Positions 15,721 to 20,068 of a stretch of DNA of 64,000 nucleotides are shown one piece after another. The notes below the pieces were generated by a model. That model saw only the letters and a program-made list of their open reading frames with translations, had not been told where the DNA came from and did not search any database. Both the position numbers and the translations under genes were made by a program. Position 1 is the first letter of the stretch. Each line of letters opens with the position of its first letter. Source of the DNA: Azolla caroliniana (Eukaryota > Plantae > Polypodiophyta); NCBI GenBank assembly GCA_043228905.1, contig JBHGNT010000003.1, positions 23,126,001 to 23,190,000 on the forward strand. Reading direction: 5' to 3'.

Positions 15721-16572
15721 TCCCCTAATACAAATTTTAGAGCCGTGTGTGGAAATTTCCTTCTTGCCTAGAGAATCTTTAAGCATTCCCTTTACTCAAT
15801 AAAATAATATGCAACTTATAATTGTGGAACTTTTCGTACACTTGTTGATTATGTATTGGTGGTAGGCTAACCATATCTAAATTTCCACATGAGTCATCTT
15901 AATTTGGAGAAAGAAAAGAAAATGTTATCCAATCCTAGGTAAATCAATTTAATGTGCATGTGTTACATGCTATTGTTTTCAACTTTAGGATTCTCCAAAA
16001 GTGATTTTCTAAAGTCACATTTAGATTTCAACCAGTGGGTCATCATGACCCATTTCGAAAAGCCAAATTCTTGAAATCATCAAATCTCTCATTTCTAATG
16101 TTTGATTTTCACACAATGTTTTACATGATGTTTTGTCTTGGAGAGACATAGGGGATGTACATAAATACTTGAAAGGTGATGTAGAGAACAAACAATAAAG
16201 AAACCATAAATTCAGTGCAATCAATATTGTAGCGTGCTTTAGTGCAATTACAACATCAAGTCAAAACAACATTGCTTGAGATCATTTAAGAATCCAATCT
16301 TTTGTGGACGCTCTATTTGTCTTCACATATGTTGGTACCAGTGTTGCCTTTTGACGGCCAACATTGCCTGTCATGAGAACGGTATTCCAAAATTTTTGCC
16401 CGTCAAATTGACGGTTTACCAAAAAAAATGCCCTTCAAAAAGTAAATACATCGAATATTTGTACGAAACAATATATTATACCCTTCTATCCTTTGCATCT
16501 TTCCAAATTTCATATACATGATCCCATTGTATCTCTTCAATGTGTGGCCCATTCAATGAGACTTGCATTAAA

Positions 16573-16980
16573 TCATCTAAATGCTCTATATTCAATCGAT
16601 TTCTTTTCATCTCTTTGATGAGATTTTGCCAATGAGACTTGCATTAAATCATCTAAATGCTCTATATTCAATCGATTTCTTTTCATCTCTTTGATGAGAT
16701 TTTGCTTAGAAAACCCTCTCTCACACGAAACTGTGCTAGACGGAATAACCAAAGTAGCTTGCCATAATTTCATCAAATGAGGGAAACTATCTTGCCAATC
16801 CTTCATTTTGCAAAACATACGCCAAGCTTCATGCATAGTATAGCCTTCACAATTTAAACGTAAAGTGTCAACAAACCTATAGAGTTCCATTTCACAAGCC
16901 TTTGCATCATGTAAAATTTGAGGACATGCATTGACATCAACATTTGGTTGTAAGTGAGAAATCAAAATTCCCAACCATGT
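16573..16980 (-). pseudogene. hAT transposase C-terminal dimerisation-domain remnant
   Basis: IPSSTVSCERGFSKQNLIKEMKRNRL matches the hATC motif; a ~76-bp tandem duplication at about 16554-16706 scrambles the end. Confidence 0.9.
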
Positions 16981-17635
16981 CTTTGCTTTACTTTTGCCCT
17001 TAAAGAGGAGAGCAATACTAGTTTTTATGGACTAGTAAAAGAATTTGGTGGTATATCTAGTAAAAGCCATTGTAAATTTTCGTAGAGGGAAATATATAGG
17101 GTAAGTTGGACTTCGTCTAGATGCAGAATGCCAACCTAGACACACCACAACATAATGTTACTACGTAGCATGTTTTTCCAATAAAACATGTACGAGACAA
17201 TGATGCCATAAATGCAAGGATAAGTCCAAAGATTAATTGGTTTGGTATTTAACACTATACAATAAAGTTAGATATGCAAGCCATATCCTATAGAGTTTTT
17301 GCTTTGGTCCTAGAGGAGTTCGCGACATGTTAACATGTTAACATCAACTGGCAACATGAACTAACATGATGAAACATGATTTTATTATTATTAACTAGCC
17401 TCGCCGATGCATCCGCCACTCCATACACGATTCTATGTGCACATATGTATATGTGACACCTCGAAATATATGCATAGATATCTATCTATCAACCTAACCT
17501 ACACTTAGATGATGATGTATGGACATACACATATACATATATTATACAAGATGCATGTTGATGTATGTCTCGATGCATCAATGGGTGAGGACCTTGGCAA
17601 TTTACTACTCCTCTGAGCTTCGATTGTAGGACAAG

Positions 17636-18100
17636 ATGCAGATCTTCGTGAAAACCTTAACTGGTAAGACCATCACTTTAGAGGTAGAATCCTCTGATAC
17701 CATCGACAATGTCAAGGCCAAGATCCAAGATAAGGAAGGGATAGCCCCGGATCAGCAGAGATTGATCTTCGCCGGGAAGCAGCTCGAGGATGGGCGAACC
17801 CTAGCAGATTGCAACATCCAGAAGGAATCCACTCTCCATCTCGTGTTGCGTCTACGCGGTGGGGCTAAGAAAAGGAAGAAGAAGACATACACAAAGCCCA
17901 AGAAGATCAAGCACAAGAAGAAGAAAGTGAAGCTCTCTGTCTTGCAGTACTACAAGGTGGACGACTCAGGGAAGGTTCAGAGACTCCGTAAGGAATGCCC
18001 TAATGCTGATTGTGGTGCTGGTACCTTCATGGCCAGCCATTTTGATCGCCATTATTGTGGCAACTGTGGGCTTACTTATGTCTATCAACAGAAGGCATAA
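17636..18100 (+). CDS. RPS27A: Ubiquitin-40S ribosomal protein S27a (eS31) fusion, intronless, inside the hAT element
   Basis: 76-aa ubiquitin ending LRLRGG followed by S27a with a C4 zinc finger; ORF intact but with P37A and Y59C in ubiquitin and CGKC changed to CGNC. Confidence 0.95.
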
Positions 18101-20068
18101 GCTTCATATTTAGGTTTGGACTTTCTATGATGGTGTAGGTTGCATGCATGAAATTAGAGTTTTTTGTGTCTGGTTTTTCTTGCGGACTAAATGTATCCTG
18201 TTAGTTTTTCTAAGTATTCAATTACTAGTGTTCTTTGCATTCCAGAGAGAGAGAGAGAGAGAGAGAGCTACCTTAGATGGGTGAGTAGGACTGCTGCAGG
18301 TGTTGCTGAAAGCCTGAATCTATGAGTAGACTGTAGCAGGAAACGAGCAACAAGCTTCGAGTAGGGATAGTTATTAGTGAGCACTGAGTTGCGAGCTTCC
18401 AGCAAGGTGCAGGGCTGAGGGAGCAACGAAGAAACATGGGAAAAGGGGAGAAATGGGGGGAGATGGGGGAAAATGGGGGAAAGGGAAAGGAAGGTTTTAG
18501 ATGGGGAAACGGGGCGGGGGAATTGGGAAGAAAAGATTCATAATTTAGAGTCTAGACTCTATTAGTTTTTTTACCTTTTCGTTACACACATATGTGAGTC
18601 TTTCAAATTCATACACTCCCAATGCAACTTGAACAATTTGTTCCTACTACCTAGGACTATAATACTATTGTATTGGTCTTAGTAAAATTTGACGGTATTA
18701 GGAAATTTTAAGCCTTCATTTTTACGTTTTCATAAAACATATGCCCGTCAAGATTGACGGTTTCATTTTTAAATTAACCTTCATATACGGTTAAATTTGC
18801 CAAAAACGTTCAAAACGGCCGTCAAAAGGCAACACTGGTTGGTACCAAATTCTTGGATGTGTGCTTGATCTTATTTTATTATTCTAGAGACATTTTCATT
18901 AAGGGAATCTTGTATGCATACTTAGCTTTTCTCTTTAGTAAATTAGTGCATATAGAGAGATTCGAACTTTAGTGCATATGCGTGTGCATTTGTATATAAA
19001 GCTATTTTCTTTGTCTTTCAATAAACTACAACATAGAGTGAGATATGAACTTGAGCGCCTATTTATCTATGCGTTGATTCTATTGGTCAAGGTTACATAT
19101 ACATTGTGCACGGACTTAAGATCTTTATATCACAAACCATGGAGAAGTAATTGATTCTTATTTGCTTCATCAACAAACGTATAAGTGGTTGCTCTTTGCG
19201 CTAATAATAACGAACTCCACATATACAAAGCCTCCTCATGATTCTAGTTGGGAGACATTGTATGTCCTTCAACAGGTGTGCGTATTTTAATCCATTTCTT
19301 CATTTGTCCCATAATTAAAACTTTTTGTTTGTATGTCAATAAAAATGCCAATTCGGAAGATTCGCATCGTGCACCATTTCTTAACATATTCAAAAATGTA
19401 ACAAAGTTATTATTTACATGTTTAGCTATAAGAGACCTAATTAAGCACCCAAATTTCTCGACTATTTATTCATCTCCTCTTTTAGAAGATTGCTTGTTGA
19501 ATTCTAGATCATTGAGGTAGTCCATTAATCATATATTGTTGAAATGGATGAGAAGTTCTTGTCTAACAAAATTTTCACATGAGGTAGCTATTTCCAAATT
19601 AGCAAGCAATTTTTGTATTCTAAATTTTCTTAATGCTATCCAATTTAGCAATAACTTTTGTTGCTTCTTTGATAGTCTTAAATTTTCTTTTAAGATGTGT
19701 TGGCATGACACTATTATCTAGAGTTTCACAATGAAAGGCATTCCCTGATTTTAAGCATGTGTTTATATGAAGCTCTATAATATGTTGAATGGTGATAGGT
19801 AAAGTCTTCCGGTGAATCAACTTCTACGTCATCTTGAGCATCACATGCAAATGTATGGGCAAAACTATCTGATTCCATTGTTTAAACCATGTTGCATATC
19901 ATAAACTCTTTCATACAGCTTCTTGAAGGTTGCTCTGTAGCTCATTCTTTAACTTGTTGATGTGAAATTCTCTCCTTGTTTCTAAATGTGATGACACCCA
20001 AGTTTTAATCATCTATTCCCTCACATCTTTGTTGATGTCACAAAATGGAGAAAGGATATAACCCCACC

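Follow-up and report, generated by a model that had tools for sequence, protein, structure and literature searches.

The 64,000-nucleotide window analysed here (Azolla caroliniana, GenBank assembly GCA_043228905.1, contig JBHGNT010000003.1, positions 23,126,001 to 23,190,000; contig C3 in our numbering) carries at positions 16339-18837 a copy of a hAT transposon with a ubiquitin-ribosomal protein S27a (Ub-RPS27a) gene between its ends. We consider it probable that this is a non-autonomous hAT element bearing a spliced Ub-RPS27a retrocopy, which was loaded into a (GA)n microsatellite of the element by a GA-targeting long interspersed nuclear element (LINE) of the L1 clade acting in trans, and was then multiplied by hAT transposition. 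The copy is a deletion derivative with 21-bp terminal inverted repeats (TIRs) and a duplication of the target site (TSD) of 8 bp, and is one of 12 Ub-RPS27a-bearing copies in the 523-Mb genome. By every feature tested the element is a hAT; it is Pack-like in its working and departs from Pack-TYPE elements in the capture of host sequence as DNA.

The cargo came by way of RNA, since an intron is precisely absent from it. In the host gene (C8:3210141-3211562) nucleotide 22 of the coding sequence (CDS) is followed by a 790-bp GT-AG intron, and the two exons of the gene, to which the cargo is 97.7% and 92.1% identical, are joined to the base in the cargo. This junction is held in 10 of the 12 copies, that part being deleted in the other 2, and a contig from a public run joins the same sites. 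Gain of an intron by the host gene, rather than loss by the cargo, was ruled out, because a second host RPS27a paralog (79% identical) has its intron at the same base. The cargo starts 21 nt before the ATG, without the host promoter, and ends 144 nt after the stop codon, directly in (GA)n. It lacks the poly(A) tail of a processed retrocopy, 0-5 A preceding (GA)n in the cargos of this family; the (GA)n that flanks the Alba, RPL21 and RPS8 retrocopies described below could hide a TSD, and none is seen at the 5' end of the Ub cargo. S27a matches in the genome numbered 15, comprising the 12 hAT cargos, 2 intron-bearing genes and 1 weak fragment of 54% identity. Among contigs from public runs (four runs for the host gene and four for the full Ub element) none lay over the C3-derived piece beside the cargo or bridged the cargo and a hAT arm, which is no proof of silence. 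Such contigs cannot show mRNA ends, one of them reaching host position 5596, beyond the cargo end at 5563.

The features of the window copy are as follows (window positions).

16331-16338, unstranded: left TSD, GTTGGTAC
16339-16359, plus strand: left 21-bp TIR, CAGTGTTGCCTTTTGACGGCC
16476-16989, minus strand: 3' remnant of the hAT transposase gene (PF05699; C-terminal dimerisation region with SCERGFS motif; stop codon at 16476-16478)
16554-16705, unstranded: 76-bp perfect tandem duplication within the transposase remnant, shifting the frame and common to the twin on contig C4
16989-16990, unstranded: breakpoint of a 1,947-bp deletion, in which the start and the catalytic core of the transposase were lost, from global alignment to a 4.4-kb copy (L031)
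17001-17059, plus strand: remnant of an older cargo, a retrocopy of an OTU-domain gene (59 bp at 89.8% identity to the host's OTU gene, E 5e-19)
17064-17096, plus strand: 33-bp remnant common to the RPL21- and RPS7-carrying subfamilies
17117-17611, plus strand: captured piece, 85% identical to C3:22455200-22455868
17615-18244, plus strand: Ub-RPS27a retrocopy, with 21 nt of 5' untranslated region (UTR), CDS and 144 nt of 3' UTR
17636-18100, plus strand: open Ub-S27a reading frame, 154 codons and stop
17657-17658, plus strand: exon-exon junction of the Ub-RPS27a cargo, where the host gene has its 790-bp GT-AG intron
18245-18267, plus strand: (GA)n microsatellite, the slot and 3' anchor for each mRNA cargo in the family
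18268-18816, minus strand: right arm, where the promoter and exon 1 of the transposase gene are predicted to lie
18817-18837, minus strand: right 21-bp TIR, a perfect match to the left
18838-18845, unstranded: right TSD, GTTGGTAC

Only two sites for a 19-bp core of the TIR occur in the window with up to three mismatches, where 100 shuffles gave an expectation of 0. The minus-strand remnant matches Dimer_Tnp_hAT (PF05699) with an E value of 5e-8 in Pfam and is 96.6-98.6% identical to a 5.1-kb element (L047), and the open reading frame (ORF) on the plus strand matches both the ubiquitin (E 6e-32) and the Ribosomal_S27 (E 1e-25) domains. The original prediction, made from the letters of the window, had described perfect TIRs with a TSD, a transposase remnant on the minus strand and a full 154-codon Ub-S27a ORF on the plus strand, all of which these data bear out; what it called UTR-like flanks are real UTR of the host gene on both sides. 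The C3-derived piece spans a 200-bp gap without GT-AG ends. To the right of the element lies a GAG-pre-integrase remnant of a long terminal repeat retrotransposon (window 20069-20368, minus strand).

Of the 12 Ub copies, three are complete elements of 4.4 kb, eight are deletion derivatives measuring 1.8-2.5 kb, and the remaining one is truncated by the end of a contig. Those with both ends, 11 in number, have 11 different TSDs and are 0-2.2% apart over their last 1,190 bp, so host-gene sequence between TIRs has moved as a unit, as in Pack-TYPE elements. The window copy has a twin on C4 with the same structure and 4 differences in 2,499 bp; because this twin sits at another locus with a different TSD, the broken deletion form has itself moved. 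No empty site for the window insertion was found among the loci examined, no genome-wide search for one having been made. Of the expectations raised in the original prediction, mobility in trans is supported by the C4 twin and by intact transposase frames in sister elements, and its whole housekeeping ORF in a hAT has moreover been multiplied by that hAT. Two of its readings are not supported. Pack-type capture of genomic DNA gives way to entry of the gene into a progenitor element through RNA, the intron being absent. The transposase core was not replaced by cargo, because long copies keep the full-length transposase region with the cargo upstream of its start codon; the two coexist in the 4.4-kb relatives, and a separate deletion removed the core. 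The counter-case that it had named, a later insertion into a single hAT copy, differs from what was found, as the insertion has been amplified; a single late insertion of Ub-RPS27a is likewise ruled out by the 12 copies.

The (GA)n repeat has served as a slot for more than one gene. Sister elements with the same ends carry other cargo between the transposase start and the same (GA)n-CTACCTTAG right arm, namely RPS7 in 7 copies (two with one shared TSD), RPL21 in 4 whole copies, Alba at 2 loci, an OTU-domain gene in 4 copies, and a composite that includes a Q/G/Y/P-rich exon, of which 7 copies are complete and 2 interrupted or rearranged. All 11 introns spanned by five of the cargos are absent (Ub-S27a 1, RPS7 4, RPL21 1, Alba 4 and OTU 1, the last of 5.6 kb), the opposite of the Pack-TYPE feature of genomic capture with introns kept; the Q/G/Y/P piece, like two others, covers no intron position and so falls outside this comparison. 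The mRNA cargos lie in one orientation throughout and run to their 3' end or near it, followed by 0-5 A. Alba and RPL21 extend from the start of the 5' UTR and are bordered by (GA)n at each end; in L139, an older relative, the Alba flanks enclose an empty repeat, to be compared with the filled site in L106. Cargos are also nested, RPS7 having replaced the body of RPL21 and left the RPL21 5' UTR and last 36 nt in place. Trees of the left half and of the right arm place OTU carriers as older than RPL21 carriers, and those as older than the carriers of Ub-RPS27a or RPS7; the Alba carrier has the most distant right arm.

Several further arrangements were seen in and around the slot. The cargo of the 5.1-kb subfamily is a composite of three host pieces, among them the 5'-truncated Q/G/Y/P-rich exon, and the Q/G/Y/P cargo differs at 11 synonymous and 12 non-synonymous codons. 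Tandem cargos occur at L120:3582-6170 (OTU-(GA)n, an 870-nt single-exon piece from C11:20488000, and (GA)n), and L082 and L083 have about 1 kb of cargo sequence before (GA)n. An 80-bp unit with (GA)n and (GAA)n stands in 2-3 tandem copies at the 5' end of the RPL21 or RPS7 cargo (slot of L035-L052, L037, L055 and L094), and the repeat on the 3' side of L035 now reads (CA)n.

A donor-like AAG/GTAGCT (GT at 18271-18270) stands just before the repeat on the transposase strand in 8/8 cargo-bearing elements compared, and 3/3 show a pyrimidine run with CAG at 8 nt ahead of the transposase ATG. These signals suggest that the slot probably belongs to an intron in the 5' UTR of the transposase gene, the cargo being antisense to it; inserts at this position would therefore be spliced out and the autonomy of the element kept. 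The 746-residue transposase frame is retained in 9 of 16 full-length cargo carriers, that is in 9 of the 13 that carry RPS7 or Q/G/Y/P and in none of the three that carry Ub-RPS27a (the start anchor failed for two of the 16, one with a 737-residue open stretch and the other broken). Non-autonomy, a further Pack-TYPE feature, thus holds for the window copy and for the three full-length Ub carriers and not for those 9 of 13.

Assignment to the hAT superfamily is supported by the short TIRs with 8-bp TSD and by transposase matches to PF05699 and zf-C17orf113 above cut-offs. An exact 20-nt TIR pattern has 96 sites in the genome, 48 per strand, and a reversed control has 0; TIRs were paired in 25 of the 32 stretches first examined, with a perfect 8-bp TSD in 24 of these and 7 of 8 positions in the remaining one. 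Within the 746-residue frame we located D, D, CxxH, W and E motifs, whose roles we take to be those of hAT transposases. Transposase chains 4d1q and 2bw3 in the PDB match weakly (E 0.06), and the best named relatives are from the ferns Adiantum (59%) and Ceratopteris (44%). Members of the youngest subfamily are 0-0.4% apart in their left half, which suggests that the family was recently active; this subfamily consists of the 5.1-kb elements L043, L044, L046, L047, L048, L050 and L053. Runs X1 and X6, labelled as two other organisms, hold contigs 90-99% like the transposase and TIR arms, and the hAT family is therefore common to relatives.

A candidate for the loading enzyme is present in the same genome. 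An older hAT member (L084) contains at 2150-7150 an L1-clade LINE (C5:19225849-19230849 of genome G000) with APE, reverse transcriptase (RT) and zf-RVT domains and a zinc knuckle in ORF1, whose 3' end runs into the hAT GA arm in cargo orientation. From 653 first-look candidates for its 3' end, 40 were scored and the best 30 examined (L143-L172). (GA)5 or more lies within 40 nt of the 3' end, after 0-8 A, in 25 of these best 30, as against 163 of 20,000 random windows (0.8%). The 5' end is visible in 10 copies, being beyond the stretch or interrupted in the other 20, and abuts (GA)n in 7 of the 10, each at a different truncation point. Because a tail cannot explain a repeat on the 5' side, (GA)n appears to be the target of this L1 and not only its tail, and a repeat on both sides of independently truncated copies is likewise a feature of Kibi-like elements. 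Endonuclease features scored 0.97 for L1 ORF2 clusters and 0.96 for Tx1 clusters, and a search for long relatives of ORF2 gave 1 Adiantum protein. This high-copy, GA-inserting L1-clade LINE may be a plant counterpart of Kibi.

A second LINE was ruled out as loader by its orientation, which is opposite to that of the mRNA cargos. Its 3' end abuts (TC)n, (TCTA)n or GA/GATA repeats (L089, L093, L095, L103 and the flanks of L042), and three of its insertions are at the hAT GA repeat (slot in L089, L093 and L095).

Retrocopies were also sought away from the hAT. For RPS8 there are 7 intronless loci from 3 events, none of them in this hAT, and in the first event (GA)n directly adjoins the retrocopy at both ends. 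RPS7 too has a retrocopy outside the hAT, which stops at the very 3' base where the RPS7 cargo of the hAT stops and then continues as (GA)n. This spliced, 5'-truncated copy (L119, C11:17031439-17032149, and L118) adjoins an intron-bearing gene, presumably ankyrin-like from its look. A search for RPS3a gave 3 intron-bearing genes and no retrocopy. Two GA-flanked RPS8 retrocopies (L177, L178 and L183; L179, L180 and L185) exist in 3 copies each with common flanks, and because the flanks are shared it seems that retrocopies are amplified by a further repeat family as well, the ends of which did not show up within 10-kb stretches.

These observations can be assembled into a sequence of events. The landing site would be the (GA)n repeat of the right arm, which is antisense to the transposase gene, lies upstream of it and would fall within its putative 5'-UTR intron. 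The L1 endonuclease would nick the (TC)n strand and the reverse transcriptase would copy a polyadenylated mRNA from near the start of its tail, leaving 0-5 A and then (GA)n, the junction shape that is seen. New inserts would overwrite older cargo with deletions and microhomology joins, as the nested remnants record, and the element trees suggest the order Alba, OTU, RPL21 and then Ub-RPS27a or RPS7. Transposase from intact sisters would move the cargo copies, deletion derivatives included, whose TSDs are distinct, and the cargo would then decay as a passenger, as its pattern of changes indicates.

Several observations weigh against this scheme. The 5' end of the Ub cargo adjoins the C3-derived piece without (GA)n or TSD, so that the signature is confined to the 3' junction, and the donor allele is not that of the C8 gene, with about 20 synonymous differences from the C8 gene as against 1 shared non-synonymous difference. 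RPS7 is joined by 9-nt and 6-nt microhomologies to RPL21 and not to (GA)n, and the ends of the Q/G/Y/P-rich cargo are likewise not GA but carry a 16-bp direct repeat; because of these non-GA junctions, not every load can have gone straight into the repeat. (GA)n is itself common, with 181 runs in 741 kb of partly redundant sampled DNA. Among the L1 loci, the repeat is lacking at 5 of 30 3' ends and, where the 5' end is visible, at 3 of 10 (two of these being a single locus); the 30 are the best matches and include the query itself and probable duplicate contigs. Both the specificity of the L1 and its activity in trans are deduced solely from junctions. In the second RPS8 event (GA)n stands at the 5' end, with about A10 and 45 nt before GA at the 3' end, and the third, an old fragment, has no (GA)n. 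Finally, an intact transposase is missing from every full-length Ub carrier.

The cargos might instead have arisen by repair of breaks, with RNA or cDNA as the template and no target priming by this L1, breaks in the microsatellite or left by excision being patched through microhomology from abundant transcripts. The exchange of the RPL21 body for RPS7 through AAGAAGATC and CTTCAA, the joining of the OTU 5' end through TCTC and the presence of non-spliced fragments in the same slot would all fit. We regard it as unlikely, however, given that all mRNA cargos have one orientation and a 3' end with 0-5 A, the shape of the L1's own ends, and that two independent RPS7 events stop at the same base. 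A pre-existing GA-tailed retrocopy could instead have been captured as DNA and gap-repaired into the element together with the C3 piece; the lack of (GA)n at the 5' end of the Ub cargo, the genomic appearance of the neighbouring piece and a donor allele that is not the C8 gene speak for such a course, and GA-tailed retrocopies do occur outside the hAT. No source copy is found among the 15 S27a matches, however, and the Alba empty and filled sites show insertion in place, which leaves this DNA-level route quite improbable.

That the Ub cargo is a selected accessory gene, supplying extra ubiquitin or S27a to the advantage of element or host, is hardly credible to us, although the frame is open in several copies and dN/dS (the ratio of non-synonymous to synonymous rates) against the host gene is 0.01-0.07. 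This low ratio lies on the branch before amplification. Afterwards, 22 of 33 distinct private substitutions among the copies are non-synonymous or stops, the other 11 being synonymous, and of the 12 copies 3 have stops, 2 lack the start codon and 3 have indels. The host promoter was not captured, and RPS7 without a start codon and RPL21 with a shared stop were amplified all the same. This pattern points to decay of the Ub cargo as a passenger. The window copy, which differs from the host gene by P37A, Y59C and K143N, the last two being changes of this copy, is likely to be decaying too.

The Ub copies have 19-23 synonymous differences from the C8 gene, and P37A is their sole shared amino-acid change. 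Their synonymous distance of about 0.22 compares with 0.08-0.15 for RPS7, RPL21 and OTU, which fit native donors, and is far above the age of the subfamily, whose right arms are 5.5% from those of the RPS7 subfamily. Of the near-fixed cargo differences, 13 of 21 recur in RPS27a contigs of other runs (all four counted); differences 5174, 5298, 5300 and 5301 are found only in run X2 and in the second form in X10. Because the synonymous distance exceeds the age of the subfamily and these differences recur, the donor was probably a sister allele or paralog missing from the assembly, or came from another species together with the element. Run X10 holds both RPS27a forms, as a hybrid or mixed sample would. 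A wider proposal, which we put forward tentatively and hold to be rather doubtful, is a relay of two transposons in which the GA-targeting L1 loads mRNAs into a pad in the hAT leader intron and the hAT amplifies them and can ferry them between species. Ub-RPS27a would be such a ferried gene, because its alleles are shared with RPS27a of related organisms and not with the gene of its own genome.

Parts of this system have precedents. A hAT that carries a histone H3 transcript has been described in the fungi Pseudocercospora fijiensis and Pyrenophora tritici-repentis (PMC6710886); it too has TIRs and an 8-bp TSD and has amplified an intron-free housekeeping copy, but it has one cargo per family and the relevant passages of that report name no loading mechanism or site, whereas in the present plant family five spliced cargos share one slot and the genome also holds a candidate loader. 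In bats, according to the sections of PMC4224331 used here, Helitrons carry nested retrogenes, including one for the ribosomal protein RPLP0, through L1 retroposition into a DNA transposon and subsequent amplification, with empty sites as proof. Those were four separate events with poly(A) and ordinary TSDs, in contrast to a cut-and-paste hAT whose (GA)n target is fixed, with hardly any poly(A), with cargos overwritten in series and with carriers whose transposase frames are intact. Pack-hAT elements are already described in maize and rice (PMC8903248). As excerpts of the respective reports present them, Pack-TYPE elements (PMC8903248), Pack-TIRs (PMC8277862) and Tgm-Express (PMC1947982) are likewise TIR elements mobilised in trans with host-gene cargo from several loci. 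Pack-TYPE elements are defined as non-autonomous, with cargo taken as DNA, and Tgm-Express keeps exon and intron regions (PMC1947982), whereas the gene cargos of the present family are spliced and the transposase frame survives in many of its carriers. For the loader, the parallel is with Kibi (TC-repeat) and Koshi (TTC-repeat), APE-type non-LTR retrotransposons that are likewise endonuclease-bearing LINEs inserting into TC/GA microsatellites and that are reported from fish in the portion of the review consulted (PMC3812793), while the L1 described here is from a plant. For plant L1 elements in general, mobilisation of mRNA in trans by poly(A) recognition has been proposed, as far as the text consulted goes (PMC3472496). 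A literature search to which Repbase, most subscription journals and supplements were not open gave neither a microsatellite slot in a DNA transposon reloaded with mRNAs nor a GA-targeting plant L1.

Amplification of retrogenes by DNA transposons is thus known already; what is new here, to judge from this search, is the fixed, serially reloaded slot with a candidate enzyme. It is not settled how TIR transposons acquire host genes, most models working at the level of DNA, and because loader, landing site, empty and filled sites and the cargo series are all in one genome, the RNA route is directly testable in this fern. Retrocopies flanked by GA would escape existing pipelines, since they have no poly(A) or recognisable TSD, and the Pack-TIR survey, in the part of PMC8277862 that we cite, discarded intronless cargo. 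We speculate that this may bear on the many gymnosperm retrogenes without poly(A) or TSD (PMC13477047, from the portion of the text at hand). Antisense, multi-copy cargo also leads to the prediction of small RNAs against ribosomal-protein mRNAs. The finding matters more for the family than for the single copy in the window.

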